A DNA stretch of 63,343 nt, the filler included, from Reclinomonas americana ATCC 50394 (Eukaryota): NCBI GenBank assembly GCA_048213135.1. It is 13 parts of 13 records of this genome, joined end to end, with 100 filler letters (N's around TTAATTAATTAA, not from the genome) between each part and the next. Parts side by side here need not be neighbours in the genome. Positions count along the whole stretch, not along the records: positions 38,469 to 49,323 come from AFZH01022394.1; 12 more parts are not named here. One strand, written 5' to 3'. Position 1 is the stretch's first letter. Each line of letters starts with the position of its first letter. A model generated the notes under the pieces. It was not told the origin of the DNA, did no database searches, and worked only from the letters and a program-made list of their open reading frames with translations. A program made the translations under genes and the position numbers. Below are positions 3,085 through 62,850 of the stretch, in pieces.

Positions 3085-4717
3085 ATGAGCACTGGAACCA
3101 GCGGAACTCTCCTCTCAGCAGCCGGCTTTAGTCCGCGCACGCGATCTCTCCTCGATGCCATTCACACGCTGACCAGCACCACCACCAACACGAGCACAAC
3201 GCGACCAGCCTCACGCCACCACAACAACAACAGTGCTGTGCTCAGACCGCAGCCGGTGACGGCAGTGACGGAGGTGGTGGCGGCCGCGTCGGCAAGCAGG
3301 ACGCGCCCGCGCTCGGCGTCGATGCTCGGCACGAGGCAGACGTTGTCGGTGTTTCAGCGTCCGGCGTCGACGTTGCGGCAGCAGGCGGCGGCTGTGGCGG
3401 CGGAAGCTGTCCGTCCGGCCACGCGACAAGCCGGCGAGTCGACGACGATTGGTACGAGCAGTGGTGTATTGGTGGGCGGACGCACGACACCGCCCCCGCC
3501 CAAGCGCAACACGTCGACGAACACGCCGCTGATTCGCAACGCGTCGGACTCGGAGTCCTCCAACAATGGTGTGCACACGACGATTTGCATGCGGACGCCG
3601 TCGCCTCCGCCCGCGGTGTCGGCGAGGTGTGCAGCCGGTTCGGCACTGGCCACGGCGCGTATGCTGGCCAATCGGAGAACGAATGCGTCGGGTGGAGCGG
3701 TCGGACGGCCACTGGTGTTGTCCAAGACGCAGCGCGATCAGCTGCGTGATGAGGACCACGCTCAGTTGGTCAAGGTCATCCACCCGGTGCCGGCGCCGGC
3801 CACCTCATCGACATCGCTCTTGTCGGTGCCGGCGCAGATTGCCGGCATGATGAAGCGCATCGACAGCATGCCACCACCTGCTGCTGGACAGCAACAGCAA
3901 CAACAGCAGTACGCGAGCGGCTTGGACAAGCTGCCGTCGCAGTCGTCCATGGTAATGAACTCGACCATGGCGACGGCGACGTCGCAGGCACCCAAGCCCA
4001 TTCGCGATGCTGTGCACATTTTGCGAGGGTGTGTGGCACCGCCCGGTTCTGGAGCCACGGAGGCGTTTGATCGCCTCATGTTCTCGGTCGAGGACTTTTT
4101 GTCGCGCATCCACCGACGAGCGCGCTCCTCGCCCGCCATTGTGTATCTCTCTACCTACTACATTGTTGCGTCGTCACCTCCGGCAGCTGCTGTATGCGAC
4201 TCAAACTGGTGTACTGACTTCTTCTCCTTCCCTCAATGCGCAGTGGAAGCTCGCTGAACGTAACACGGCAGTGCGCGTCACCATGTACAACATCAAGCGA
4301 CTGGCTTTTGTCGGAGTGGTGCTGGCCCACAAGTTCTTGGAGGACCGACCGGCCCGCAACCGCTCCTGGGCCAAGCTCGGCGTGTTTGCGTCGTTGGCGG
4401 AGCTGAACCGCACCGAGCGCGAGGTTTTGCGCCTGCTCGAGTGGCAGCTCATGGTCACCGACACGGTGCTGTGCGGGTGGATCCACGCCCACATTGCCGA
4501 TTTTGAGGACAGCAGCCTGCGGTACGAGCTCAAGTGGCCGTCGTCATCGTCGTCGTCGTCCACCGGCAACGGCTCGTCGCCATCGCCAGGCATGGTCTCG
4601 TCGCCGGTCAAGCCCACCACCAGCAACGAGTCATCATCATCGTGCTTGAACTCGGCTCTTGCCGCAGCCGTCGCTGCTGCAACCGCGAACGCCTCTGCTG
4701 CCGCCGAGGTCATATAA
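3085..4717 (+). CDS. PHO80/cyclin-P(U)-family cyclin with a long low-complexity N-terminus; exons 3085-4164 and 4244-4717
   Basis: The cyclin box SVEDFLSRIHRRARSSPAIVYLSTYYI|WKLAERN...NIKRLAFVGVVLAHKFLED...NRSWAKLG...LAELNRTEREVLRLLEWQLMV is restored by removing a 79-nt intron (GTTGCG...ctgac...CAG). Confidence 0.85.
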
Positions 4718-22400: not shown

Positions 22401-25400
22401 GGATCCACTCGGAGGAGGATCTGCGTGGCACGGGTGACTCTCGAGGCACTGAACAAATAGCAGGGGTGAAATGAGAAACGCACCAGCAACGACAGTGCCC
22501 ACAGAGTGGAATCAGAGTGCGTCGCCAGCAGAGCGAGGATCACGTCGACGAGTTCCTTGCTGAGAAGTCGCGGATCGGCACGAGGGCACTGCGAGTGGGA
22601 GACAATTGTGAGTGAGAGCATAAGTTGATGGCTTAAGCGTACGCGCGACCACATGCGACTCACCGATTGCGCAGAGGCAGGAGCCGGCGGGCCACACACC
22701 ATCACAGTGAAGAGGAACATGCACTTGCACAGAATACCCGACTCATGTCTGCGACGGCAACACAATTGTCAGGTGCAACGGGCTGTGCGGATCGGCAGGC
22801 GTGCACAACGAAACGGTGTCAGCGACGACATCGGCCGCTGCAAGAATGGTTGCATCAGTGCCAGCAGGACGGCGACGGCATTGCCAGTCGAGGTCAGCTG
22901 TTCGATGTGGTGCTGCACTTGCTCCGCGGCGAAACTCTCCGACACGAGTGGGTCGTGCGACTGCAGAGGTAGAAGGAGAGGGATGAGTGGAAAGGGAGGG
23001 AGGAAGAAGAAAAGAGGGAGAGGAAAGAGAGGGAGGGGGGAGAGGAGGAGGAATGAGAAGGAGAAAGAAAGCGAGGACAAGAGCGGTAAATAGAGGGAAA
23101 GAGAGGGGGAAGAGAAGAGGGAAAGAGAGAGGGAAGGGAGGGCAAGACAGCGGGAAAGAGAGAGGGAAAGAGAGTGGAAGAGAGGGGAAGTGGGGAAAAG
23201 AGGGGAAAGAGAGGGAAAGAGAGGGAAAGAGGGGAAAGAGGGGGAAAGAGGGGGAAAGAGGGGGAAAGAGGGGGAAAGAGAGAGAGGGAGAAAGAGAAGA
23301 AGAGGGGGAGAAGAAGAGGGGGAGAAGAAAATGAGAGAAGAGAAACATAGGGAGAGAGAGAGAGAGAAGAAAACGGGAACGAGGGAATGAGACGAAAGGA
23401 GAGGAAGGGCGGCAAAAACAGACAGGCAAAAGGGTGACCTGGCAAGACACAGGGCAATGCAATGGAGAAAGAGCACAGACGATGTCTCGGATCGGAATGT
23501 GAAGAACAAGAAGCACAATAGCCTCCTGATACGCACCTTTTCAAACGCACTCCATCGGTACACCAACAAATCGTCTCGCTCGTTTCCGCCGCACACCAGG
23601 GCACACAGCACCTGCAGCGCCTGGTGCTGCAGCGGCAGCGGCCAGGAGAACTCTTGCACGAGAGTGGAGGTGGCTACGCAAGCAGAGCACGTTGGTTACA
23701 ACATCGAAATAACGCGTCGCGCTTGTATGCTCACCTCGCGAGGCGACAAACGAGAGCGACTGCAGTACGCGCGAGGCACCGCCCTGCTCGCGGAATTGAA
23801 TCGAGATGCAACGCACGAGTGGTTCCTGTGCAGCAGACGAATAAGACGTGCGTGAACACTGAGCACGCGTCACACCCGTACGCAACAGTTTGGAATTCGG
23901 TGAGCAGCGGATACAAGGCCGCCAAACAACGCTCGACAACGAGTGCGTTCTGCATGGACAGGGCGCGCGACACGATGCCCATGTTGTCGTTGAGGAACAG
24001 CTGTTGCGCGGTGTCGAGGAAGTTGCCCGCGCCACTGCAGTGCACAGTATCAGACGCCGATGGAATAATGACGTGAGGCACACGAAAACACACCCAATGA
24101 TTTTCAGCGCATCCACTTGCTCCTCCACACGGGGAGACATGCAGTGACAGCAGGCAGTGTGCAGCTCCATCATGCTGTTATCCTTGAACCACCTGCACGG
24201 ACGGGAAAGAACAGTCGGACGCTGACTCTGGATTCCACGACGAAGAAAAAAAAAGATCCGCAACGAGCTCAGTACGCGCTCGGCGGCATTCACGAGCACA
24301 CCGTCCAGATCGCCCAGTTGCGCGCACATGTCGATGATTCGGAAACGGTACTCGATAGAAACGTGCAGCAGATCACTGCGGCGAAACGCGTCAACTCGCA
24401 GTGTCGAATGCCGACGATGAGAACAACCAAACGACGCAACTTGCGCTCCAGCAACAAGTTGACGCAAGGGTTGCCGTTGAATCGAAGCACTCGAATGTGC
24501 TCTCGCACATTGCTGTGCGGGGAGACACAGGAGTCACATCTCCACACTCACTCACTCACTCACTCACTCGGCAATCATCCATCACACGCTCACCGTGCCA
24601 ACTTGAAAAGATCGTCGAGGCTGCGCACAGCGGTGCGCACCATCTCCAAGTGCCGCAGCGAGGGGCACACGGCGACGCCTTGTCCAATGTCGTCCAGCTC
24701 CACCGTGTGGATCTTGTTGTTGTTCAGATACAAGTGGCTGAGCGAGCGGAAGCCAGAAAACCAGCGCCACCTGCAATCGGCCGGATACGATTAAGAACAA
24801 CGACCAAGGAGGATTGGGAGGAGAAAGAGTGCACGCAACGGCAGGACGTTGATCTTGTTATTACTCAAGTCCAGCACACGCACGTTGGCGAATACCTCGA
24901 GGCCGGATTTCGGCAGCACCTCGATTTTGTGATTGCGAAGGTGGACTTCCCTGAGAGGAGGAAAGGAAGGGGGTGGTGGGTGAAGGGAAAGGGGGAAGGG
25001 AAAGGGGGATGACGGAAGGGGAGAAGACGGAAGGGGAGAAGACGGAAGGGGGAAGACGGAAGGGCGGAGACCGAAGGGGAAGACCGAAGGGGGAAGACCG
25101 AAGGGGGAAGACGGAAGGGAGAAGACGGAAGGGGGAAGACGGAAGGGGGAAGACGGAAGGGGGAAGACGGAAGGGGGATGACCGAAGGGGGAAGACGAAA
25201 GGGGGGAGACGTAAGGGGGAAGACGGAATGGGGGAAGAATTAAGAAATGCAGCGTACAGATTCCTTTCGCCAACCTGATGCTCTCGGCGACCTCTGGCAA
25301 CGAGCGCAGATACTCGTCCGTGATGCGACTCATCCTATTATTCACCCGCTCCTCCTTTGCCAACCGCTCGGCGTCGCGCAAAACGTCGGTCATGCGAGTA

Positions 25401-28400
25401 AATACAGGATGCTCTCGACGCGCATTCGGCAGCCTCGCTTCCAGGTACTCCACGTCGGCCGCATGGATCCACTCGCGGTATGACGCAAGCAGCTCGGTGA
25501 CCGTGCCGTACTGCAAGCGTGGCGAGTGAGTGTGACCCACACGTATGCAGAGAGAGGAAAGAAAGCGCTTTCTCACGTGGGCAGCGGCGTCGTGCTTGCT
25601 TCCGTAAAGCAGGGCGTCGCTCCAGGCGTACAGCAGGAACTGAAGGCCAATGTGCGCCTCGCTAACCTATGCCACACAAACATGAAAAAGAGAGATGAGA
25701 CGCGGGAAGCAGTGGTGGTGTAGACCTCGGAGGCAGGCTCCCGACGAGCATCGCCACCGGCGTCAGCGACGGAGTCGACATCACTCTGCCGGGATAGGAG
25801 GAATCAGAGCAGTGTGACACTTCAAGGCACGCACGAAAAATCACACCTCTGACACGAGGGACCGCCCACTGCTCTCGTGTCCACCACGCCTGGGCGAAGC
25901 TGCGCGTAACACACGACGTTGTGAGTGAGCGAGTGAGCGCAGAGTGCATGAAGCGATCGTCAAAGTGGGACGCAACAGGAGGCATCAGAACGAGCTGCGG
26001 ACCCGTGCCGATGGAATGCACCTGGCCGCGAAATAAGTTAGTGAGCAAAGCAACAACGATGTGAAGCAAGATGATTCACAAACCCAGTGCATTGGCACTC
26101 CAACCTGCACCAGGAGCGCACATAAGAACGACACGCAACAATCCAGCATGAATGACGAGGGACACTTACCAGCTGGCCCGTCCTCCGCATCGGAGGGAGT
26201 GAGCACCTGCAGCGTACCGCTGTATCCGAGTCGTCTGGCAAAGGCGACGAGATGGCGCGCCAGTGCCGCAAACGCCACCGCTCGGCGCTCAATCAATGCG
26301 CTTGGTGTCTTTTCCGGATGTGATCGAGCCAGCGTGATCAAGTCGAGACTGCGGCGGCGACGCAGTGAGTATGAGAGGCAGTGGAAGACGACAATCAACG
26401 GGGAGAGAACCTGGCATTCCAGTACTGCTGCGCGTCCAGCAGCAAGTTGGCGCGCTTCAGCAGCAACGCTTCACTGGGCGCTTGCTGCGCGGTGTGTCAG
26501 GCACACGAGGAGAACGTCGGCCCTCTTCCCCCTCCCCCACGCAACATCCATCTCGCTGGTCAACTGTGAGACCTGGTGCCGCGGATCCCCATCAAACGCA
26601 CTGCACTGTGCGCAGGCGCTCCGAATTGATTGGAGGATGCGGCTGCGCACGTCACTCGACGATGCTTGCAGTGTGATGGTGTCGGTTTTGCGACTGGGGG
26701 AGATATAGGAGAAGGGTGAGGAGGAGAGGAAATGAGAAGAGGAGAGGAAGAAAAGAAGGAGGAGAAGGAGGAGAGGTAAAAATGGGAGCACGAGAGGAAG
26801 ATGGAAGGGGCTAATCGAGAGCAAGAATAAGAACAAGAGGGAGAAGGAGAAGAAGAGGAGGAGGACGAGAAGGGGGAGCAGGAGATGGGTTAGAGAGCAA
26901 GAGATAACAGAAAGGGGGAGAAGAAGGAGGAGAGGGAAGGAGCAGGTGGAGGAGGAAGGAGGAGGAACAAGGAGATGCCCAAGGAAGAGGAGGAGAAGGA
27001 GGAAAGGGGAGAACGGAGACCGGGAGGGGATCGGAGCCAGAGGAAGGAGAAGGGCGAGGAGGAGAGGTAAAAATGGGAGCACGAGAGGAAGATGGATGAG
27101 GCTAATGGAGAGAAAGCACCAGAACAAAAAGAGAGAAAGCACAGAAGAAGAAGAGGAGGAGGACGAGAACGGGGAGCAGGAGATGGGAAAGAGAGCAAAA
27201 GATGACAGAAAGGGGGAGAAGTGAAAGATCAGGAGGAAGGATCAGGTGGAGGAGGAAGGAGGAAAAAAGGAGATGCCCAAGGAGGAGGAGGAGAAGGTGG
27301 TGAAGAGAGCAGAAGAAATAGGTGATTGTGGTGATGGTGAATGTGGAGGAAAGAACAGCAAGGTGAGAACGAAAAGGCGGATGCTCGACGGAGAAGGGGA
27401 GAGGGAAGCGCACAACGTGCTGGGGAGGGCGACAGCCAACATTTATGCACACACGAGAGAGAGAGAGAGTATCGAAACAAACTTGACAAAGACGAGAGAA
27501 AAACGCAACGCAATCAACGTGGTGAGCGAGAACCGCAGCGGATCCTCCGCCGACTCCTGTATATCACTGACATGCTCATACAGGTAGGTCTTTCGATGCG
27601 ACTGCCCATCCACATCCACCGTATGAAAGCACGTCGGCTGCAAATGCAACCACTTGTCGTCGACGGTGCGATTGGTGCGGATCTTGACCACGCGAAACAT
27701 GGTCGGCTGTCGCAACGTTCTCGTCATGGTCTGCATCACATAATGCCGCGACCGTTTCACCATGGTCATTGTGCGCAGCAACTCCGAGGCCTCCATTCGA
27801 TGCGCCATGGACGGCAATCGCTGATCGTTCAGTGGCGACAACAGCTCCAGTGAGGCCACCTCGCGCTCCAGCATCTGCACCGCGCACAGCAGGTAATCCG
27901 GCACCGCAAACGATATGCTGCACATGTCGCCAATAAGCTATCACTATGATAATATGAGTGGTATGAGGAAACACGGCCTTGCCTGGTGTCGTCCTCCACT
28001 GCCACACTGCTCGGTGCTCCCGGGCGCAATGAGACCAACTGTGCAGAGGAGGAGGAGGCAGGCGGAGATAGCAGAGACTCGACATCGCGACGGAGTTGAG
28101 GCAGCCACTCGCGAATGGACGCGGAACTGTCGATCAGAGTCGAGAGGAAGAGGAGAGTGCCGCGACTGAGTCGGATCTGACAAGAGCAAGACAATGAAAG
28201 ATGGTGAGAAATCGAACACTGAGAGGGGGGACAGAGAGAGAGAGAGAGAGAGTGTGTGTGTTGTGTGAATGAGAGAGAGAGACAAGAGTGAAGGGTGAGA
28301 AAGGAGAGAGAGAAGAGAGTGTGCACTGTTTCCCGCCAATCGTTGTCATGTGAGTCTCTGTGTGTGTGAGAGAGTGAGAGAGTGTGTGTGTAAGTGTGTG

Positions 28401-30333: not shown

Positions 30334-32835
30334 ATGAGTGAGGCCAGCTCGTCTTCCTCTGCGACCCTTCTCACCGCCATCAGCGCCGACGCTGAGCGCG
30401 TAAAGAGCGCACAAGAGGCATCGCTCACTCGCGATCGCGCAGTTGTTGAGCAGTTGCTCACACGCGCGCGAGAGATGCACGCGCAGTTCGCCACAGGTAC
30501 ATACACACACAGAGAAGGCGATGAAAGCGGGGGGAGAAGGCGATGAAAGAGGGAGGAGAAGGCGATGAAAGAGGGAGGAGAATGAGTGAGAGGGAAAGGG
30601 CGCGGAATGAGGGAAGTGAGGGAGTGTGAGCAGAGAGGGAGAGAGAGTGAGAGAGAAAGGACCCAAGTTGATTACCTCTCTCTGTCTCTCTCTCTTTCTC
30701 TCACTCTCTCTCCACCCACCACACACAGAGAGAGAGAGAGATAGAAAGAGAGCGAGCGTGTGCGTGTGTGTGTGTGAGAGAGTGAGGAGAGTGAGAGAGA
30801 AGATACTTTGAGTGGAAAGCCTCTCTTGTCCTTCTCTCCCCCACTCACACACTCACTCTCTCTCTCTCTCTCCTCTCTCTCTCCTCTCTCTCTCTCCCTC
30901 TCTCCCCCCTCTCTCTTTCTCTCTGTGTGAGGGAGGAGAATGATAGAGAAGATACTCTGACAGTCAAGTCTCTCTTGTTCTTCTCCCTGTTCTCTCTCCT
31001 CACTCACACACACCCACTCTTTCTTTCCCTCCCTCTCCCTCCCCCTCCCTCCCTCCCTCTCCCTCCCTCCCCCCTTCTCTCTCTGTTCATTTGCGACTGA
31101 TTGAGCATTTTCCTGATCAACACCATCCTTCTTTGAAGGTGCCTGCGAGAAGAAGCCGAAGGCCATGTTTGGTGACTTTGCGAATGAACTTGTGCGAGCG
31201 GGCAGTGAGGTGCAGTCGGCGCACAAGGACTTTTACTCGACGCTCGGTCGCATGGGAAAGACGCTGGACAAGTCGTTCGCCATGGACTTGTCCATGGCGC
31301 ACCGACCGTGGGCGTTTGACAAGGCGCTGGTGGATCAGGCGGTGGCGGAGCACTTGTATCGCGAGGGGCACTTTGCGGTGGGCGAGACTGTGTGTCAGGT
31401 GAGAGAATGAGGGAAAGGGAGAATGAGGGGAAGGAGGAGAAGGGGAGAAGGGATGAAGGAGAGCGTGTGAGGGGAGGTGATGGAGAGTGGGGGGGAAGTA
31501 CGATGAAGGATGAGGCGAGAAGAGATGAAGAAGAGAGTTACAGCTGTGATGAGAGGGGATGGAGAGTGGGGGGAAGGACGATGAAGGATGTGGGGAGAAG
31601 GGATGAAGAAGAGAGTCACAGCTGTGATGGAGGGGATGGAGGAAGGGGAAGAAGGGCGATGAAGGGTGAGTGGAGAAGGGATGAAGAAGAGAGGGGATGG
31701 AAGAATGGGGAGAAGGGCGATGAAGGATGAGATGAGAAGAGATGAAGAGAGTCACAGCTGTGATGGGAGGGGAAGGAGAATGGGGAGAAGGACGATGGAG
31801 GATGAGGGAGAAGGGATGAAGAAGAGAGTCAAAGCTGTGAAGGGAGAGGAAGGGAGATTGTGAAGGGAGGGGATGGGGAATGGGGAAGGATGAGGAGAAG
31901 GGACGAAGGAGAGAGAGTTAATGCTGTGAAGATTCGGGAAGGGAGATTGCGGAGAAGGACGATGAAGGATGAGCGGAGAAAGGATGAAGAAGAGAGTCAA
32001 AGCTGTGAAGGTGGAGTAAGAATGTAATTGAGAGAAGGTGGGCATGAGAGCCAAGGTGAAGTGGAAAACTCGGGACACAGGATACTGGAAGAAAGAGCAC
32101 GTCCGTTTGCGAGTGTCCTCATCTTCTTCCCTGTCAACTCTTGAGCCATCCTTGTGTTCCTCCTCGTCCTTCTTTCAGCACCTTCCGCATAGACACAGCA
32201 CGCAGGAGAACGTGAGTGTGCAGAAGTGAGCGGGCGAAGAGCAGCTGCTGTGTAAATCGGAGAGATGTCAAAGAATGTCAATTGTCGACTGACACAGAAG
32301 CGTGAGTGAGTCAGACGGAAAAGGGACTCCTCAGCATGTTGTGCAAGCCAACAAGATTCTGCATGCCTTCTCTTACATCTTCTCCACCTCCGCGCGCACA
32401 CCCACAGGAGGCCTCGGTCGCCGTGGACGAATCCATCAAGGCGCAATTCCTCGACATGTACCGCGTGCTGCAAGACATCCGGTCCGGCGTCCTCTCTTCC
32501 GCTATCGAGTGGTCGCGCGTGCACGAGAGCGCACTGCGTGAGGCCGGCTCGTCGCTCCCGTTTGCCCTCCACCGTCTGCAGTACGTGCAGCTGGTGGCGG
32601 CGAACCGAGTGGCCGAGGCGCTGGAGTACTCGCGCCAATTGCCGCTGTTCGCCGGCCCGCAACACATGCACGAGATACCGCGCCTGATGGGCGCCCTGAT
32701 GTACGCTGGTTCGCTGGAGACCAGCCGGTACGCCGACCTGCTGCAAATGTCGCAGTGGCGAGATATTGCCACGATGTTTGCTCGTGAATGCTGCGCGTTG
32801 ATGGGCCTGCCGAGTGAGAGCTCCATCTTTGTAGC
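30334..32835 (+). CDS. RMND5: RMND5/GID2 (CTLH/GID E3 ligase subunit); the 3' end, including the RING domain, is lost at the contig gap. Exons 30334-30496, 31139-31398, 32408-~32835
   Basis: HKDFYSTLGRMGKTLDKSF; LisH (VDQAVAEHLYREGHFAVGETVCQE); CTLH (FLDMYRVLQDIRSGVLSSAIEW...SSLPFALHRLQYVQL); CRA (EALEYSR...HMHEIPRLMGALMY...FARECCALMGLPSESSI). Exon phases are consistent. Confidence 0.9.
31420..32020. repeat. Degenerate purine-rich minisatellite in RMND5 intron 2
   Basis: The core gatgaagaagagagt(c/t)a(c/a)agctgtga recurs at least five times. Confidence 0.75.
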
Positions 32836-32986
32836 GTTACGTGTGGGGGGAGCAAGGGGTTGCTGCTGTGTGTGTGTGGTGGGGGTNNNNNNNNNNNNNN
32901 NNNNNNNNNNNNNNNNNNNNNNNNNNNNNNTTAATTAATTAANNNNNNNNNNNNNNNNNNNNNNNNNNNNNNNNNNNNNNNNNNNN

Positions 32987-40768: not shown

Positions 40769-43700
40769 TCACGGCTTTGGCGCCCGACGGCACCACGACA
40801 GCGGATTGAGCCACGCTAGACAGCGGCGTAGTGCGCTTCCACCTCCACCACCGCCACCACCTGCTCCGCCCTGCACGGCGAACAGTGCAGTCTGAGCCGT
40901 CGTGAGGTCCAGGCTGGCCAGCGACGAGATGAGATCCTCGCGTGTGACAAACTCGCGTCGCACGGGCACGTTTTGCACCAGGCGCACCCCTCGATGGCCG
41001 GTGATCTGCACGCCAAGTGAGCACAGGCGAACAATCTTACGAGGAAAACACTTGGATTGCGAGACGCACGTCTTCCACCCACTGCACGACATCGCTCAGC
41101 GGCTGCTCGACCGCAAACTGCTTTTGGATCGGCGTTCCGTTCCACAGTCGGACCTTGACGACAGTGTGCGTGGGCGGCTCGGGTGCGGCGGCCGGGCGAC
41201 GGCCTCGTGCAGCTGCAGATGCGGCTGCGGCTGGGCGCACCTCCGGTACCACTGATGGTTCGGCGGGCGGGCGGCGCCCACGTGCCGCTGGACGTGCCTC
41301 GGGTTCCACTGGCGGCGACGCCTCTGGCTTAGGAGACGGAGATGCCGCTGGCTTGGCAGCAGCTGGACGCGTCTCTCGCTCTACAGCAGGCTGTGGACGC
41401 TGCAAGGGCGGAAGTGAGGCGTGCAGTGTGGTGGCAGGGCAAAGCTGCAGGCTGGCCAGCGACTTGGACATGTGCGCGGTGGTGAATTTCTTCTTCGGCA
41501 CCGTCTGCGCCAGCTCAAAGCCGGTGGTGGTGGTGGTCTGTGCGGAAAAAATCGAGTGAGAGACAAATAGAGGTGGCGGGAGGGGAGGTATATTACCTCC
41601 TCCACCCAGTTGGCGACCTCTGCCAAGCGGGCAGTGGCTGGGAACTCGCGGCGAATGACGGAAGAGTTCCACAACCGCACGCTGATCATACACTGCGCAA
41701 CGAAACCAAGGGCGGGTGTCAGACCAACGCAAAGGATACGTGAACCCCCTTCTCTTCTGTCTCAGAAATGCCTACTTCCTCACACTCACATATTCCATGC
41801 CCTTCGCAACAACTTCCACCGACAAGAGCAGCTTCTCTCTCCTGCTGTCTCAGACGACCTCGCCCTGACCTTTTCGTTCTGGGTTACCGCTTTCTACGCT
41901 CTCACACTCCTTGTCATATCTCAACAACCACTTCATGTGTGCAGGTGCGCAGCGAACAAAGAGTAACCTATTCCTGTCTCCTAAGAGTCTCCCACCAAGA
42001 ATTTTTCGATCTGATCCTCGAGTTTCTCACCTCTCGCTCTTTCTCAACAACAACCACCAAGGGACAGCTTTCCACTCCTGCTGTCTCAGACGACCCTCCC
42101 TCTCGTTCTGGGCTCTCATTCTCTGTCTGTCTCAACTGCCACCCAACAAGAGAAAATTTCCCTCTCCTTGAATCTCAGAAGTGACTCTTGCAGTCTCTGT
42201 CTTCCCCATTAATTTTGTCACTCTCCCCCACTCCTCTCTTCTCCTCTTTCCCTTCCCTTTTCTCCCTCTCTCCTCTTCTCTCTCCCTTCGCCTTTTCTTT
42301 CCTTTCCTTCCCTTTCCCTCTTCCCTTTCCACACACCGTAGCTGCTGCCGCCGTCGACGGAATCTCGGACGCAGGCGCAGCAGCGCTGGCGGCTGCTCGC
42401 GCCCTCGGATGCCTCTCCTATTCACCCCACGGACGGTGTGAGCCGACAAAGAGGAAAGGGAATGAGTGAGCATGCTGCTCACCGATGATGGATACTGTCG
42501 AGCAGGCTGTGCAGGATGAGCAATTATGTGAGACACGGAAAACAGAGTAGAATGTCTGACACTACGATACGCACCGCAGCAGGTGGCGGCTGCACACGCA
42601 CAGAAACAAGGCATGAGATTCACCGAGCACGCAACAGAAGAGAGAGAGAAAGAGAACTCACCATTGAACTCGAGGAACCACCCTGCATCGAAGCAATCAG
42701 CATCATACGCCACGCCAATGAAGGAGACAGGTCTCGAGCACTCACCACTCCTCTTGGCGACGCGTCTCTCGATCTCGGCGACGCGTCTCTCGATCTTGGT
42801 GACGAATCCCACGATCTCGGCGAAATGTCGCCCGCTCTCCTCGGCGACGACTCGGCCGACCTGGTAGGCTGCATCGCAGGAAGCAAAAAGTCAGTCGCCA
42901 CTCACACCTCTGAGAATCACTTTTTCGCACCGATGGTGGCACCGTCACCGTCTGCGCAGAGAGGGAATGAGTGCCACAATAATCAACACAAGCTGCAGCA
43001 AACACATTTCCCCACCGGCAACAAGCCAGCCCCTCGCGCCTGCAGCATCCACAAGAGCAAAATGAGTACAGTATGCGCATACACACAAAATTCAGGGGTG
43101 CAACAGTCTCACCAATGGCGATTCCTCGGGCACAACAATCGGCGCACGCTGCGAAGCCTCCATGGCCACCTGCCGCTCCTCCGCCTCCAGGTAGGGTGCC
43201 AGCAGCGGCGCGGCGAGTGCCACCTTGCGACGCACCGTGGCAATCGCTCGCCGCAGGCTGCGTTAAAGCGTGAGAACCTATGTGAAGGAACGCACGCAGA
43301 GACAAGTGAGCGCAACTTGTCGCGCTCAAGACTCCTCGCCGACACGTTCTTCATCATGCGCAGCTGCGCGTCGCTGTAGGCAAGTGGAAGTGAGCAGAGG
43401 GGAGGAAAGAGGAAGAGAGGAGGAGGGAGAGGGACTCGACTTGGCGACACGAAGGGCGCGATCGAAGACGGCCGGGTCAATGTCGCACGGGTAGCGGACC
43501 TCGACTTCTTGCCCTTCGGAGTTGAAGCAGTGAACGGAGGGGAAGCCGCGGGGGGTGCCTGGGAGGGGGAGGGAGGAAGGGTGAGGAGGAGGAGGGAGGA
43601 GGAGAGGGTGAGGGAATAAGGGGAGGAGGGAGGCAATAGCGAAGATGGAGAGGGGTGAGACAGAGAGAGAAGGGAGCAAGGGAGGGAGGAGGGTAAGAAA

Positions 43701-44207
43701 GGAAGAAGACAGGACGATACAGTGCGGCCAACATGAACGCCGGAAGAGAAGACACGAGAGAGCGAGCGAGCGAGAGAGAGAGAGAGAAAAGGAAAGAAGA
43801 CAGGCCCAGACAAGACACAGAATGCAGGGAGCCCGTGAATGCATCAAGAGAAAACGAGGAGGGAGAGAGAGAGCGAGAGAGAGAAGAAGATAGGCGCTTG
43901 ACAGTGCAACAAGACCGTGCGTAGGGACAAGTACGACAACTAAGTGCCACCTAAACCAATCAAGGAGACGACCAAACAGAGAGAGACGCAACACTTCTTG
44001 CGGAGTTGCGGGCACTCGTCAGCGGGCTTGATAATGACACCAATGGCGTGCACCGCAGGCTGTGAACATGAGAGAGAGAGAGAGTGTGTGTCAGAGAGAG
44101 AGAAGGAAGAGAGAGAGAGACTGACAATATGTCTCTCGTTCACACACTGCACCACTCGCCCTCACCTTCTCTCTCTCTCTCACACACACACACTCTTTCT
44201 TCTTTCT

Positions 44208-44270
<63 letters not shown>

Positions 44271-44523
44271 TCTTTCTCTCCCACACACAAACCATTGCTG
44301 CTGTCTCCACACACGCTGTGCATCTGCGCATGGCGTCACGCACTCGAGCCTCCGCACTCTCGTCCTCTGTGAGTGTTGCACACGTGTAAGTCTCTCTCAT
44401 GACATGCACTCAAGAGAGAGAGAGAGAGAGCAAGTGTCGCGCACTGATGAATATGACAAAGAGCAGACGTGCTTCCGTGTGCGCGATGCGATAGGCCTCG
44501 TCGAAGGTGTCCGCGCACTCCAT
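40769..44523 (-). CDS. UBXN4-like p97/Cdc48 adaptor: N-terminal thioredoxin-like (UAS) domain + two UBX domains
   Basis: N-terminus MECADTFDEAYRIAHTEARLLFVIFI...FPSVHCFNSEGQEVEV. UBX1: ISVRLWNSSVIRREFPATARLAEVANWVEE...FELAQTVPKKKFT...SLASLQLCP. UBX2: VKVRLWNGTPIQKQFAVEQPLSDVVQWVED...LVQNVPVRREF...SLASLDLT. C-terminal Trp-rich amphipathic segment. Confidence 0.75.
44210..44268. repeat. (CT)n microsatellite in an intron
   Basis: Pure dinucleotide run. Confidence 0.9.
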
Positions 44524-44806
44524 GATTGTTTGGAATGGAAACCCGGCAAATCCTGGCAAATCGCGCATGACAGGTTTGATATGCGCTGCGTCGCTGCCGC
44601 TGGTGCGTTGACACTGAGGTAGAAACGCGAGTAATCGATCCGACCGACAATCTGCATATCGATAGTTTGTCGATGATGTGGCATTGCACTACTCTGCGAC
44701 TAATAATCATGAATTCGAAGACCGGATCCGGATATCAAAGATCTTGCAGTTCACTGCCTCAGCTCTCTTCATCTTCCTCTTGCTTCACCCTTGCCACAGT
44801 TGCAAG

Positions 44807-47135
44807 TTAGGCGCGATTGAGGATTGCCCGCAGCCTCTGAAGCAGCTGCTTTTCCTTGGTCTCGAAATCCGGCCCAGAGCGGTACTCAGCGTCCGAGTCC
44901 TCCAGCCAGCGCTGCACGTCCGACACGGTTCCGCTGATGGACAAAGCCAGCTGCTCCAACTTGCGTTCGGCGTTCTTCTTGCACGCCTTCTCTTCCTCCA
45001 AATCACGCTCGACGTCGCGGTAAGTTCTGGCTCTCTGCCGCACGTTGTCTCTCCGGCGCGACGTCCGGCCACCAATGTCGCCGGAGAAGCGACCAGCAGT
45101 AGAGTCAGCCACGTAGGTCGCATCATCATCCTCTTCGTCGACTTCTTCCCCTTGGTACGTAGCCAGGACCGACCGAGTCTCTCGAGTCAGCTCCGCTTTC
45201 TTGGCCTCAACCTCCTCCAGCGAATGGTACTCCACGTCCTCCAGCCAGCGCAACACATCAGACGCAGCATCGTTTACCGATGAGGCCAGCTGCTCGAGCT
45301 TGACCTTGGCGTTCTGATCCTTGCGCACGTGCGGCCTGGAGGCGGAAGGCGCAGGAATACTGCGTGAAGTCTGCGAATTATGTACCAACGACATCGCAGA
45401 GGTCTCCGACCGAGGCCGGTGCCTTGCAAAGCTGGCCGACTCTTTCGTGATGAAAATCTTGTTTTCCTTGCCCGTCGACTTGTCCTTGGCCGACACCTCC
45501 AGAATGCCGTCGGCCGACAGGTCGAAGGTGACCGCAATCTCCGGACAGCCGCGAGGCGCCGGTGGGATGCCCGACAGCTCAATTATGCCAAGCAGGCGGT
45601 TGTCCTTGGTCTTGGCACGCTCGCCCTCAAACACCTGAATCAGCACGCTGCTCTGGTTGTCGGCAAGGGTGCTAAAGGTCTCCGACTTCTTGCACGGAAT
45701 GGCCGAGTTGCGGTTGATGAGATTCATCATCACACCGCCGGCCGTCTCAATGCCAAGCGACAGCGGCGCCACGTCGATCAGCAACAGGCCCTTGGTGGCC
45801 TCCGACCCGGTACCAGTGAATATGGCAGCCAGCACGGCAGCGCCGTAGGCGACGGCCTCGTCGGGATTGATACTCTTGCACAACTCCTTGCCGTTGAAGT
45901 AGTTGCGCAGGAGCTCCTGCACCTTCGGGATGCGGCTGGACCCGCCGACAAGCACCACCTCGTGCACCTCGCCCTTGCTCAGCTTCGAATCGCGCAGCAC
46001 TTTCTCCACGGGGTCAATGCATTTGCGGAAGAGGTCGATGTTGAGCTCCTCGAAACGGGCGCGGGTGATGGACGAGTTGAGGTCGACGCCCTCGCCTAGC
46101 GTATCAATGAACATCGCTGTGACAAGCTGCGACGAGAGTTCGCGCTTGGAGCGTTCGCATGCCGTGCGCAGGCGGCGAATGGCCCGTGGGTTGCTGCTAA
46201 TGTCCTGCTTGTGCTTGCGCTTGACCTCCTCCACAAAGTGGTTCACCATGCGGTTGTCAAAGTCCTCGCCGCCCAAGTGAGTGTCACCGGCCGCGGCCTT
46301 GACCTCGAACACGCCCTCGTCCAGCGTCAGCAGCGACACATCCAAAGTGCCACCGCCCAGGTCGACGATGAGAACATTGTGCTCACCCGGAACCCACGGA
46401 TGCAACGGGAGGCCATACGCAATGGCGGCGGCCGTCGGCGCGTTCATAACACGAAGCACTTCGAGGCCGGCGATCAGGCAGGCATCCCGTATGGCCACGC
46501 GCTGATCCTCGTTGAAGTAGGCCGGCACTGTGACCACGGCCTTGGTGACCTTCTTGCCGAGGTAGGTTTCGGCCGTCTCCTTCAGCTTGACGAGTACGAT
46601 GGCCGTGATCTCCTCGGCCGAGAACTGCTTGGTCTCGTTCTGGTACATGACCTCGACCATGGGCTTGTCATCCGGGCCCTGCACGACACAGAACGGCCAC
46701 AGCACCTTGTCGGCCTGCACCGTCGGGTCGCTGAACTTGCGGCCAATCAGGCGCATCGCATCAAACACTGAAGGAGGAGAACCGACAAATTAAGCACAAC
46801 GAGACAAGTGATCGCGCGTGCTGACAATGTCAATGACGACGCACCAGTGTTGCGCGGGTTCATGGCAGCAATGCTCTTTGCATCCTCGCCAACCATGAGC
46901 TCTGTCTCCGTAAAGCTGACGTACGACGGCGCGGTGCGGTTGCCGTGCTCATTGGGAATGATTGTGACGCTGTTGTTCTCCTGCGGGTGAGAAAGAGAGT
47001 GAGCAAGTGAGTAAAGAGACAGAGTGTGTGTGCATGAATTGAGGGACGTGAACACACCCACACTGCCACACATGAGTAGGAAGTTCCGAGATCAATGCCG
47101 ATGGCTCCCTCGTACTCAGCCATGACTGTTGCCAT
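44807..47135 (-). CDS. HSP70: Divergent cytosolic-type Hsp70; three exons (47135-~47058, 46981-~46845, ~46767-44807)
   Basis: Motifs [82 protein letters not shown] and [18 protein letters not shown]. Both introns join in frame. Confidence 0.95.
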
Positions 47136-47795
47136 TGTGTGTGCGCGTGCGTACGTTGCAGTTCAGTTTGCTAGGCCTTGCTAATGTCTGGTGGGCTGAG
47201 TTGGAAACCCGGCGACTGTCGCAGTGGTGTGTGGCCGGCTTTTGTCACATTCCACACACGGTGGTTTCAGCGTTGCATTTCGCGGCATTCGCGCACTGTG
47301 CGAAGTGCACTCTTTCGCTCACCTTTCTCGTGATGTTACCAGAGTGCACATTCGCAACAGGAGCGGATACTGTCACGGGAACAATGACACGTGTTCATCT
47401 CTCTGACACTTGCTTGTCATGATCAGCTGGCAGGTTTCAGTGCATGTGCACAAACGAAAGAGAGAGAGAGGCAGTACATGATGTATGTGTGTGTGCGCGC
47501 GCGTGTGTGTGTGTGTTTGTGTGTGGACAGTTGTCGACACGTCATCGCGATCGGCCAATCAGTCTTTGACTTCATGGCGACTTCAAGGCCTCATTTTCCT
47601 CTTCCTTTGTACCACATACCACCCCCGTTCTCCACTCCTTTCGTCTCCACTTCAATCCCACCACTCCTCCTTTCCTCCTTTCCTCCATCGACAATTTATG
47701 TAAACCCCATACTGTACAGAAACGCATGACTCACTCCGTTTCTCTCCTTCTCCCCTTTCCAAAAACGGCCGCCACTCCCCCACCCACCCCACCCC

Positions 47796-50700
47796 ATGAG
47801 TCTCTTCGACGACTCACCCACCGCCGACTCCCTCTCCACCTCCTCCTGGGACTCGCCACCAGAGCTCACCAAACAACACCAGAAGCAACAACAACAACAA
47901 CAACAACGCACCAAGCGAGCCACCGGAAACGTGTTCCAGCGACTGACTGCGCGCCCTCCACCGCCCATCTATGAATCCGAAGCGCTCAACCGACCAACAA
48001 CACCACCCAATGCGCTGGAGAGACGAGAAATGGAGTTGCGTGCCGGCCTCATGTATATATTTGGTATTGATTGCCAGCTCCTGATATCTCTCATCACAGG
48101 CTGGCCCGAGAGAGGATGCGGGAGGATGTGAGTCTCTGTCTTCCGCTCACAACGTGGAGGGTTTGTGAGCTTGTGAGTGCTGATCGTTGTTGCGCAGGAG
48201 GCCATTCGGCTGGCGGCCGATGTATTTGCCAGGCAGACTGGCTCGATGCGACGGCCGTCTGGCTTGCTGCCCAAGTCGTGGTCGGTGAGTGTGTCGACAT
48301 GCAGTCGACTTCCCTGAGTCTTCTCTGTCCTCCTTTCACCTCACCGCACTGTTCGACCTCATCCCTTTCACACAATTCCTTCCCTTCTCTTCCCGCTTCA
48401 CCCATACCTCTTCGCCCTTCCATTCCCCTTCTCGTCGTTTCCTTCACCATTCTCCTTCCCTTTCCATCATTAGCATTCCTCATGTCGCCCTCCTCCTTTT
48501 TCTCGTTCTTGTCTTCGCCCTTCTCCCTGCGCCCTTCAATCTGCATTCCTCCTTTCCCCCTGCATTCTTCCCCTCGTCGCCCTTCTCCTCCTCCTGTCGC
48601 TTTTCTCTTTCTCCCTTGCCGGGCCCCATCTCGCATGTCCTCTTTTCCTTCCGCACTCATTCTCCCTCCTTCCTGCATGACCCTTCACCCTTCTCTCTTC
48701 ACTCTTCCCTGACCCTGTCATTTTTCTTCTCATCGCCCCTGTCACCTTTCCCGTTCACCCTTCCCCCTGCATTCCTCCCCTCTTCACTCTTCCCTCGTCG
48801 CCATGTTCTTCCTCCTTTTACTTTTCACTTTCTCCCTTCCCTCTTTCCCAACTCCTCTTTTCTTTTTTTCGCTTCCTACCTCTCTGTGCTCTTTTTTTCT
48901 TTTCTCCCTTTCCTTTCTCACCCACCCTTCCCCTTCTTCCTTTTCCCTTCTCCTTTCCCCCCCTCGCAGACCTCCCTCAACGTCCCCCGCGAAACCACCA
49001 ACGACTCCACCTTTCACCGCTCGCTGGTGGAGGACGACGACTCGGTACTCAACGACGACCTCATCGCCCGCCGCCGTCGCCTGCAACTGGAACGCGTACA
49101 CTCACCCTCCCACGACGGCGGGGACGGATACTCGGAAATCGCCGGCAACTCACTGTACGAGGAGGCGTTGCAGCGAGTGCGGGAGATGCACGAGGCGCAA
49201 AAGGACAGCAAGCGCACGCACCAAGAGCTCCTGTATCGCTTCACGAGGACGCTGCGCGAGCGAGAGGGTGCTCGTTGCGTTCCATGTCTTTCCCCCACGC
49301 TCTCCATCGCCTTTCTCTCACTTNNNNNNNNNNNNNNNNNNNNNNNNNNNNNNNNNNNNNNNNNNNNTTAATTAATTAANNNNNNNNNNNNNNNNNNNNN
49401 NNNNNNNNNNNNNNNNNNNNNNNTGTGTCGTCGCGGCCGCTGTCGCCGGAAACGGCCGCACGCTCGCAGCACACACCACCACGCTTGCGGCCGTACGAGC
49501 CACCGTCGTCCATGGATATTGGCCCAGCGCACGGGTACACCACGCGAGTCGACGACGCCAAACTCAAGTTTGTGCGTTCTGCTATGGTGGAAAAAGGTTA
49601 GCTGCTGCGCGCCAGGGGGAAGGCGCTGGCTAGCACTCACTCTTTGTGTGTCGCAGAAATGACGGCACGCCAACAGCGCCTGGCCATGCTCCCTCTTGTA
49701 CACCGCTTGCGGCGAACCACTGGCGGTGAGACTCCGAGTTGCCGAGCACTTTCGCTCCCGCGCCCACCCTCACTCACCATTCGCATTCCAGGAAAGCCAC
49801 GAGTGCGCGACTGTCGTTGCGACGGATGCACACACGGCCTGCCGTGCTTGAATCCACGCACTCCCGCCGTGTTTGCCGTCGTGGATGACCCGCGTGGTTG
49901 CGTCATCTCCCGCCCCGCCCGCCCACCCGCACCTTTCTCATCTCGTTGTTACGCCCAGACATTGCCAAGATGCGTCCGGACTCGCGCCTGCTGGAGGCCC
50001 GCGGCAAGCTGGACGGCGACCCGTCGCAGTCACTTGACAGCGCCGTGCTGCAGTGGCTGTGCTCGGAGGAGGCCAACGGACTGGGTGCGGCCGACCAGAC
50101 CGCCGACCGGCAAGTGCGCGTACGAGACTATCGCCGACTGTTTCTGGAGACCAAGGCCGACGGGAGGTGGAAGCAGACGTCGACGTGGCGCACCATGCTC
50201 GCCACCAACAACACGCTGCGCCTGCGCAAGCTGCCATCGTTGCGGCGTCGCTTTGCAGCGGCGGCGGCTGCTTTCGGAGAGGGCGATGTAGCAGAAGAAG
50301 GAGGAGGAGGGGGCGAGCAAGTGTCAACATCGCCGACCGCCACTGCGGCCGCTGGTACGACAATGGCGACGTCGATGGCAGGTGGCACGGAGACCATGGT
50401 CGGTGGCGGTGGCGGGGACACGGTCACGGAATTCACGGCCGAGCCGTCGGTGTTGGCACGCGAGATGCTCAGTCTACTGGAGCAGATCGACAGCGAGGAA
50501 GAGGAGGAGGATGACGAGGAGGAGGCTGCAGTGGCGAAGAAAGCAGCGATGGAATTGCCAACATCAGCCGCACCACCACCACCACCACCTGAACCTTCCG
50601 CCTCGTCTCCGAACATGGCGAAAAAGGCGGGTGTCTCGTGGAAGCCACCCGCTGACCGTCTGCACGCCAGCGAGATCATCGACGACTGGTTCACGGGGCA

Positions 50701-61756: not shown

Positions 61757-61856
61757 NNNNNNNNNNNNNNNNNNNNNNNNNNNNNNNNNNNNNNNNNNNN
61801 TTAATTAATTAANNNNNNNNNNNNNNNNNNNNNNNNNNNNNNNNNNNNNNNNNNNN

Positions 61857-62335
61857 CTGGTGCCCTACATTGACGGCGTCAACTGTGTGCGCACGCTGGC
61901 GCACCTGTCGCACGTCGACCTCGTGCTCGTGCGCTCATGCCTCGAGCACCTGCTCTTCTACGACCTGATCATCATGGTGGATCTGTTCCAATTCAGCAAC
62001 ATGTACGTGGCGTGTCCGGAGGGCTTGCGGCATCTCATCAGCAGCGACGCCATGCGCCGACAATGCTTCAAGTACGTCGACACGCACCGTGACACGCTGC
62101 GCGACGCCGAGTCCGACGCCGGCACCGAGCGTACCTGCATTCGTGCGTACACCAGCATGAAGCCGGGTCGACGGGTGGGCCACGTCCTCGATCAGCTCAA
62201 CGTGCACACGGTGGGCATTGACGAGCGCAAGTTGGTGGCGTTTGGCGTGATTCAGAATATTATTCGGAGGGTGCATGAGTTTCCCGTGTTGGTGGATGTC
62301 GCTGATTGCCCGCCGGAGTTGCTCGACATTGCGCA
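61857..62335 (+). CDS. NPRL2: NPRL2 (GATOR1 subunit), internal exon
   Basis: LVPYIDGVNCVRTLAHLSHVDLVLVRSCLEHLLFY...VDLFQFSNMY...IDERKLVAFGVIQNIIRRVHEFPV matches the conserved NPR2/NPRL2 region. The exon ends at a GTTGCG donor (62336). Confidence 0.9.
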
Positions 62336-62479
62336 GTTGCGAGAGGGGGAAGGGGAAAGGGGGAAGGGGGTAGTGAGGGAAAGGGTGAGGGGGAGGGGGA
62401 AAAGGAAAGCGGGGAGGTCTGTGCGCCATAGCTTCTCACTAGAGTGTATTTTGGAGAGCGCTTCGATTTGCATTTCGAG

Positions 62480-62850
62480 AAAGAGAGCTCTCTAGTTCAC
62501 ATGGCACTGAGGCGAATGTGATTGTGTAGTCTGCGTTGAGTTGACGAACACAGCGAGAGGCGCGTGTTTTTTTTTGCTGTGACAGTCTATCAGTGGCGTG
62601 TTTTCAGGAGTGTTTCGAGCTGCATCTTCAGAACGAGGAGTCTCTAGTTCGCATGACTTACAGGAGATTGTACATGTGATCTGCGTTGAGCTGGCTTACA
62701 CAGCGAGAGGCATGTGTATTTTTCTGTGGAAGGCTATGAGTGGCGTGTTTTTAGGAGTGCTTCGTCAGCAGATCAAGAAAGAGGTTGCCATATAGGAGAA
62801 TGTGGTTGTGTGTGCGTTGAGTTGACTTGCAGAGCGAGAATTGTTCGTTT
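62480..62850. repeat. Degenerate tandem repeat (~150-bp unit, about 2.5 copies)
   Basis: tctctagttc.catg...tgcgttgag.tg.c...cacagcgagaggc..gtgt...agtggcgtgtttt.aggagtg is repeated. Confidence 0.7.

Follow-up and report, generated by a model that had tools for sequence, protein, structure and literature searches.

A candidate pseudo-ATPase Hsp70 with a rebuilt C-terminus in Reclinomonas americana

Hsp110 and GRP170 form an ancient Hsp70 subfamily marked by large insertions and by an extension of the C-terminal domain or lid. Atypical Hsp70s are an accepted class of fast-evolving proteins that regulate their canonical partners, and a younger candidate, SSC3, has been debated as either a pseudogene or an emerging atypical Hsp70, as set out in PMC3879978. 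According to PMC8476630, Ssz1 has no substrate-binding domain (SBD)-alpha and remains in the ATP conformation, binding ATP while hydrolyzing it little or not at all, and Sse is an exchange factor with ATP bound and a marginal ATPase. In GRP170, the catalytic lysine is replaced by glutamine in nearly all homologs, and this protein, which binds ATP without hydrolysis, has been called a 'pseudo-ATPase chaperone'; cytosolic Hsp110 has Asp in place of Glu (both from bioRxiv 10.1101/2025.10.25.684324). Here, we describe an Hsp70 gene in a 63,343-nucleotide (nt) stretch of DNA from Reclinomonas americana ATCC 50394 (GenBank assembly GCA_048213135.1), hereafter the window, in which 13 parts of 13 records are joined end to end with 100 filler letters between each part and the next. 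The gene lies on the minus strand of the part taken from AFZH01022394.1 and encodes a cytosolic-type Hsp70 in which both members of the catalytic Lys71-Glu175 pair are replaced and the C-terminal third has a predicted architecture of its own (Table 1).

The original prediction, made from the DNA alone, had pointed to an intact Hsp70 with Met and Ala at these two positions and took it for either a pseudo-ATPase or a young decaying paralog. Read on the minus strand, the two codons are indeed ATG (in DAMRLIGR) and GCG, and HMMER confirms the register: in its alignments with Chlamydomonas HSP70A (7n6g) and human HSPA1A (7kw7_C), Met falls opposite Lys71 and Ala opposite Glu175. In our alignment of canonical cytosolic Hsp70s, the Lys71 column holds K in 79/79 rows and the Glu175 column holds E in 79/79, and 221 of the 244 BLASTP alignments that span both columns, from 269 database proteins that were fetched, carry K and E together; Met and Ala are therefore not ordinary variation at these sites. 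The other changes noted at the outset, TAPSY (T38A), FNEDQR (D152E/S153D) and GGTLD (F205L), are all present as well, and two more, T14S and T341S, can be added to them. Overall, the protein departs from canonical Hsp70s at 91/378 near-invariant columns.

With numbering taken from the HSPA1A alignment, 31 of the 39 positions checked in the nucleotide-binding domain (NBD) are unchanged. R171, N174 and T177, which we take to be J-domain contact positions, are kept. The direct nucleotide and metal ligands, in a list taken partly from PMC9438496, are kept at 18 of 21 positions (D10, T13, Y15, D199, G201-203, T204, D206, E268, K271, R272, S275, G338, G339, S340, R342 and D366), and the three that change are K71M, E175A and the conservative T14S. 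The same paper has Lys71 salt-bridged to Glu175, the presumed general base, and has Pro147, Tyr149 and Gln154 framing a water cluster around Glu175, Asp199 and Asp206 (PMC9438496). The catalytic loss looks selective in this light, with both salt-bridge partners gone and the binding pocket kept, as would be expected if the protein bound ATP without hydrolyzing it.

The gene occupies 47135..44807 in three exons, which splice to 2175 nt, or 724 codons with no internal stops; the open reading frame (ORF) and both introns, with their GT..AG ends, are intact, as had been proposed. Both introns are real, since three canonical Hsp70s used in tblastn return exactly three exon pieces, each in another frame; in the exon 1 region, canonical Hsp70s match at 47105-47022 in frame -3. 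The product of exon 3 without its split first codon (652 amino acids; hereafter P0001) matches the Pfam family HSP70 (PF00012) with an E-value of 1e-180 and 602 bits over profile positions 64-595 of 599, which places it in the Hsp70 superfamily.

The word intact holds for the ORF and the introns and fails for the C-terminal third, in which lid helices A and B, the distal lid and the EEVD end have all been remodeled. Identity to the canonical consensus is 228/319 (0.71) in the NBD and 74/111 (0.67) in SBD-beta, with 67/83 matching at columns conserved at 95% or above, and drops to 3/47 (0.06) where lid helices A and B would be. An AlphaFold2 model of P0001 (95-row alignment; mean predicted local distance difference test score, pLDDT, 83.5) has a confident predicted fold in the NBD and SBD-beta (pLDDT >90), predicted disorder at residues 442-482 and 540-572 (pLDDT <50), and predicted helical modules at residues 477-538 (pLDDT ~85-89) and 571-651. 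SBD-beta aligns with that of HSPA1A without insertion, and insertions of the Hsp110/GRP170 type are not found in it. No coding for lid helices A and B was found by tblastn, at a word size of 2, in any other frame; a hidden frameshift or extra intron that would restore these helices was considered and is rejected, because this search finds no such coding in any frame.

The second helical module is an in-frame duplicate of the first. The two share 25/53 residues (E 8e-14), and a direct repeat of 85 nt, at 44892-44976 and 45231-45315, is 72% identical at a spacing of 339 nt. Past the present stop, the frame continues in phase as LATVARVKQEEDEES up to a further stop, which resembles the 15-residue end of repeat copy 1, and repeat D2 pairs 44761-44781 with 45115-45135. 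The resemblance indicates that the duplicated unit once ran further and that the present stop truncates copy 2. With lid helices A and B replaced and the EEVD internal, there would be no clamp over the peptide cleft and no free EEVD end. As judged from the alignments and the predicted fold, the C-terminal third is rebuilt, and the architecture is atypical because lid helices A and B are replaced, the distal lid is duplicated and the EEVD is internal; this is not a canonical Hsp70 with two point changes.

The closest relatives of the protein are cytosolic Hsp70s of the HSPA8/SSA type. In a search of solved structures, cytosolic chains scored 636-648 bits (7n6g HSP70A 648, HSPA1A 646), BiP 514-532 and Ssb 480-498, and identity to canonical cytosolic Hsp70s is 60-70%, with up to 70% over the NBD and SBD-beta. 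A FastTree tree of 92 rows, with canonical rows thinned to every 8th and every 2nd, has the gene branching from a polytomy of cytosolic Hsp70s with no supported sister, on a terminal branch of 0.31 versus 0.13-0.16 for the nearest canonical rows. Group statistics from this tree are set aside, as its 'degenerate' label also took in rows in which the K71 column was simply missing. Orthologs with the same substitutions, for which the original prediction proposed to look, were not found. A word-indexed search with the exon 3 product, limited in scoring to the 8000 candidates with the most words in common, returned canonical-type Hsp70s alone, with identities of at most 69%, and an exhaustive representative search gave 64680 matches, of which the best 150 are all at or below 70% identity and none extends past query residue 550. 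For the tail (residues 445-652), a word-indexed search yielded 3704 candidates, none at E<=0.01, and a scan of metagenome contigs yielded 138 pattern matches, 0 of them confirmed; an Atlas look-up with the tail scored no higher than 0.88, against short fragments of Hsp70 C-termini, which we treat as a lead only. The placement in the cytosolic polytomy, the long branch and the lack of a close relative in these searches together point to a lineage-specific derivative of a canonical cytosolic Hsp70.

The paired loss is found in other natural Hsp70-like proteins. Besides the 221 alignments in which K and E are both present, 13 have lost both, two have lost only K and eight only E, six of these by a change of E to D; the losses of K and E thus go together (Fisher p 1.6e-14 over the 244 alignments of the 269 fetched proteins), with local motifs confirming the register, and since this sample is small and was picked by similarity to the query protein, the association is a lead and not a survey. 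The 13 double-loss proteins (P0125, P0127, P0126, P0133, P0159, P0156, P0192, P0210, P0240, P0250, P0225, P0243 and P0220) come from Juncus effusus, Carex, Rhynchospora, the mushroom Cyclocybe aegerita, the foraminifer Nonionella stella and metagenome records. At the Lys71 and Glu175 positions, they include M/A (KAJ3694548.1) and M/G (KAJ3669454.1) in J. effusus, M/H in C. aegerita (CAA7270568.1), L/S in N. stella (EP01083 P068479), V/A in Carex rostrata (XP_078150809.1) and I/A in Rhynchospora tenuis (KAJ3690694.1). In seven of the 13, the loss falls in the degenerate unit of a tandem Hsp70 with two units, both of them degenerate in P0156, and in four of the six non-tandem proteins the match to canonical Hsp70 also stops at the boundary of SBD-beta and the lid. 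A second, tandem Hsp70 was sought in the 63-kb window, and none was found. Alike in having lost both residues, these proteins are not close kin, being 32-51% identical to the query and showing no supported grouping in the tree, and among them the R. americana gene has diverged the least from canonical Hsp70.

Several marks of coding constraint suggest that the gene is not a copy that died long ago. GC content at third codon positions (GC3) is 0.79 over the gene as a whole and lies at 0.72-0.87 in windows of 100 codons (0.72-0.73 in the tail), compared with a GC content of 0.49-0.51 for the introns and 0.52-0.53 for the flanking DNA. When neutral drift was simulated to 30% residue divergence, with substitutions only and no indels, the 515-codon core escaped stops in just 8 of 2000 runs, and the mean was 5.6 stops. 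Where columns are conserved at 95% or above, the 55 substitutions average a BLOSUM62 score of +0.22, versus -0.42 for random single-base changes; 39 of 20000 resamples reached the observed average. Between the repeat copies, nonsynonymous divergence (dN) is 0.38 and synonymous divergence (dS) 0.81, for a dN/dS of 0.47 over 51 codons, and the bootstrap range of the corresponding pN/pS is 0.38-0.99, with values of at least 1 in 2.2% of resamples. The ratio between the copies argues that the tail has been constrained since the EEVD became internal. Taken together, the GC3, the stop-free ORF, the conservative changes and the repeat dN/dS show that most of the divergence arose under selection for a folded, translated protein.

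We lean modestly toward reading the gene as a lineage-specific paralog of a canonical cytosolic Hsp70 (HSPA8/SSA type) that is now selected as a lidless, ATP-binding, non-hydrolyzing and non-cycling binder or regulator, which we read as comparable in kind to Ssz1 or GRP170. The pseudo-ATPase half of the original prediction is in part borne out by the missing catalytic pair, the otherwise kept pocket and the marks of coding constraint. Several observations weigh against our reading. The stop in repeat copy 2 cuts off what copy 1 still encodes and may be a first sign of decay; no ortholog was found in any of the protein, tail or metagenome searches; and GAAnnTTCnnGAA, which we take to be the canonical heat-shock element, does not occur with one mismatch or fewer at 47136-48300, upstream of the start codon (at this tolerance, the whole window holds five matches, versus 14.2 expected from shuffles). 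The dN/dS of the repeat comes from 51 codons, with an upper bound touching 1, and the constraint tests cover the whole history of the branch, so that they are compatible with a recent loss of function.

A recently inactivated paralog, long selected as a divergent Hsp70 and now decaying before stops and frameshifts have gathered, would account for the absence of both the lid and the terminal EEVD in addition to two catalytic residues, for the stop inside the former duplicated unit, for the lack of an ortholog in our searches and for the long terminal branch (0.31 vs. 0.13-0.16). It fits poorly with an intact 724-codon ORF whose introns both keep GT..AG, with a GC3 of 0.72-0.87 along the whole gene, with conservative substitutions, with the selective retention of the rest of the ATP pocket and with a dN/dS below 1 between the repeat copies. 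The decaying paralog of the original prediction is weakened by these marks of constraint and is still a rival; we hold it to be unlikely, although of appreciable weight.

The two remaining alternatives concern the catalytic codons themselves. A still-active ATPase in which other residues, such as the acidic S153D or D152E, rescue catalysis is improbable. The lysine has no evident substitute, as the only new Lys or Arg residues at the 55 conserved-column changes are K93R, Q325K, N390R, E427K and N441K, none of them known to lie near the gamma-phosphate, and every Lys71 substitution tested in Hsc70, Met included, is said to have abolished hydrolysis in the hands of O'Brien et al. in 1996. Even the milder Lys-to-Gln change of GRP170 leaves very low activity, according to bioRxiv 10.1101/2025.10.25.684324. 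What speaks for such a rescue is that D152E and S153D sit in the very loop whose Pro147, Tyr149 and Gln154 frame the water cluster (PMC9438496) and that catalytic residues have 'migrated' in some pseudoenzymes (PMC10211241). An error of sequencing or assembly at both codons, hiding AAG and GAG in an ordinary divergent Hsp70, has a very slim chance: one base separates each codon from the usual one (AAG>ATG, GAG>GCG), but two independent errors would have had to fall exactly on both partners of one salt bridge, in a gene that deviates at so many other near-invariant columns and has a rebuilt tail, and the same paired loss is found in 13 other natural proteins.

Table 1. Features of the Hsp70 gene and other Pfam-recognizable ORFs, in positions of the window
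Feature	Position	Strand	Details
Exon 1	47058..47135	-	26 codons; phosphate loop 1, D10 and T13 kept, T14 to Ser (TCC 47081-47079); spliced model in frame
Intron 1	46981..47057	-	77 nt, GT..AG, GC 0.49; frame switch between tblastn pieces
Exon 2	46845..46980	-	136 nt; carries TAPSY (T38A)
Intron 2	46768..46844	-	77 nt, GT..AG, GC 0.51; interrupts the Val codon directly before FDAM
Exon 3	44807..46767	-	Remaining NBD, linker, SBD-beta, rebuilt C-terminus, TAA stop (44809-44807)
Catalytic Lys71 position, Met	46754..46756	-	ATG in FDAMRLIGR; full-length residue 76
D152E and S153D	46505..46510	-	GAG GAT; PAYFNDSQR loop adjoining the catalytic center
Catalytic Glu175 position, Ala	46439..46441	-	GCG; full-length residue 181
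F205L	46343..46345	-	TTG; phosphate loop 2; D199, G201-203, T204 and D206 kept
Interdomain linker region	45770..45808	-	7/13 identical to consensus; LLLI core (LLLIDV) kept, preceding conserved Asp to Gly
SBD-beta	45443..45769	-	Well conserved, confident predicted fold
Ser/Arg/Pro-rich stretch replacing lid helices A/B	45320..45442	-	Predicted disordered
Helical module 1, distal-lid counterpart	45149..45319	-	Ends ...LATYQG; aligned to HSPA1A 574-613; repeat copy 45231-45315
Internal EEVD relic	45122..45157	-	P0001 540-543, 109 residues after; canonical consensus ends EEVD
Spacer, acidic then Arg-rich	45050..45148	-	Predicted disordered, P0001 540-572
Helical module 2, in-frame duplicate of module 1	44810..45049	-	New C-terminus ...RAILNRA
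In-frame continuation past stop	44759..44806	-	LATVARVKQEEDEES and stop; resembles 15-residue end of repeat copy 1
PHO80-type cyclin ORF	3959-4714	+	
LRR_8 ORF	24794-25666	-	
CTLH/CRA ORF	32306-32935	+	
UBX ORF	41040-41771	-	
NPR2 ORF	61809-62492	+	

Among the 121 ORFs scanned in the window, the five at the foot of Table 1 are the only ones besides the Hsp70 that Pfam recognizes, and many long ORFs have no family match. The CTLH/CRA ORF has just two relatives in a collection of 5.8 billion proteins, both at 34% identity, and the source lineage therefore seems poorly sampled. Origin of the Hsp70 gene from an integrated giant virus, prompted by the Atlas match, was considered and rejected, given the introns and the ordinary eukaryotic neighbors. 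Long dinucleotide microsatellites, (TC)58, (GA)n and (TG)22, lie on both flanks of the gene (44168-44280, 44070-44120, 43755-43884 and 47482-47525), and low-complexity purine-rich arrays are present at 43378-43633. No tRNA genes and no Rfam families at the gathering score were found in the 63 kb. The sign of the GC skew flips around 20-33 kb of the window.

If the gene does encode a selected, non-hydrolyzing paralog, the protein would still bind ATP and would be unable to split it, and because ATP is not split, a J-domain protein could not push it into the substrate-trapping state. It would have no lid with which to clamp a client, and the TPR partners that bind EEVD could not read it. A protein without ATP splitting, without a lid and without EEVD reading by TPR partners would be non-cycling, and would most likely stay bound to ATP and act within the Hsp70 system as a binder or regulator. 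Like Ssz1 or Hsp110/GRP170, such a protein may pair with J-proteins, exchange factors or canonical Hsp70 or serve as a decoy for them, with the choice among these partners being our conjecture. Less likely, it might rely on its conserved SBD-beta to work as a holdase of low affinity and fast exchange.

The non-hydrolyzing relatives Ssz1, Hsp110 and GRP170 arose long ago and have diverged so far that they do not show how a cycling Hsp70 becomes a helper of this kind. The gene described here is about 70% identical to canonical cytosolic Hsp70 in the NBD and SBD-beta and already has the full set of changes, including, in nature, exactly the two substitutions long used as laboratory tools. A wider and distinctly more tentative possibility is that it represents a young, still Hsp70-like stage at which a cycling chaperone is turning into an ATP-locked regulatory subunit. 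The cell would then have kept a natural K71M/E175A 'dominant-negative' and put it to use, for example in holding or titrating J-proteins, exchange factors or canonical Hsp70 through its intact NBD surface and SBD-beta, and the gene would be one case of a recurrent eukaryotic loss of the Lys71/Glu175 pair, often together with the lid. Should the protein be expressed and bind ATP, the gene would offer a tractable natural intermediate, and the 13 other paired losses would suggest a recurrent route; a dying copy would be ordinary gene-family turnover.

Compared with canonical cytosolic Hsp70s (HSPA8/HSPA1A, yeast SSA, Chlamydomonas HSP70A), the protein has the NBD ligands, the linker and SBD-beta in common and retains the EEVD as a relic. 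It differs from them in having Met for Lys71 and Ala for Glu175, a stretch predicted to be disordered for lid helices A and B, a duplicated distal lid, an internal EEVD and an end in ...ILNRA; of the features of a cycling cytosolic Hsp70, the catalytic pair, lid helices A and B and the C-terminal EEVD, which serves TPR and class B J-protein partners, are thus the ones that it does not have. Laboratory mutants, Hsc70 K71M and DnaK E171A/E175, were reportedly characterized by O'Brien in 1996, Wilbanks in 1994, Johnson and McKay in 1999 and Buchberger in 1994; the first three of these are cited in PMC9438496. The K71M and E171A classes keep nucleotide bound and are defective in hydrolysis or coupling, and PDB entry 1kax, among our structure matches, is presumably the K71M mutant. 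Hsc70 K71M and DnaK E171A have the same residues replaced by the same amino acids as here, whereas in R. americana the two changes are natural and occur together, in a protein that is also without the lid and the terminal EEVD. We found no natural K71M/E175A cytosolic Hsp70 in the literature, as covered outside subscription papers.

Among the atypical proteins, Ssz1/HSPA14, of the ribosome-associated complex, shares with this protein the combination of a dead ATPase, here predicted from sequence, and a missing lid. Unlike Ssz1/HSPA14, the protein described here has a highly conserved SBD-beta and a duplicated helical tail; the 60 best-scoring solved chains include none of Ssz1, and orthology to Ssz1/HSPA14, as judged by similarity levels, is not indicated. 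It differs from GRP170 and Hsp110 in that both catalytic positions are non-polar (Met and Ala, not Gln or Asp) and in that it falls in the canonical cytosolic clade. On paper, the protein resembles Ssz1, Hsp110 and GRP170, and it belongs to none of those subfamilies.

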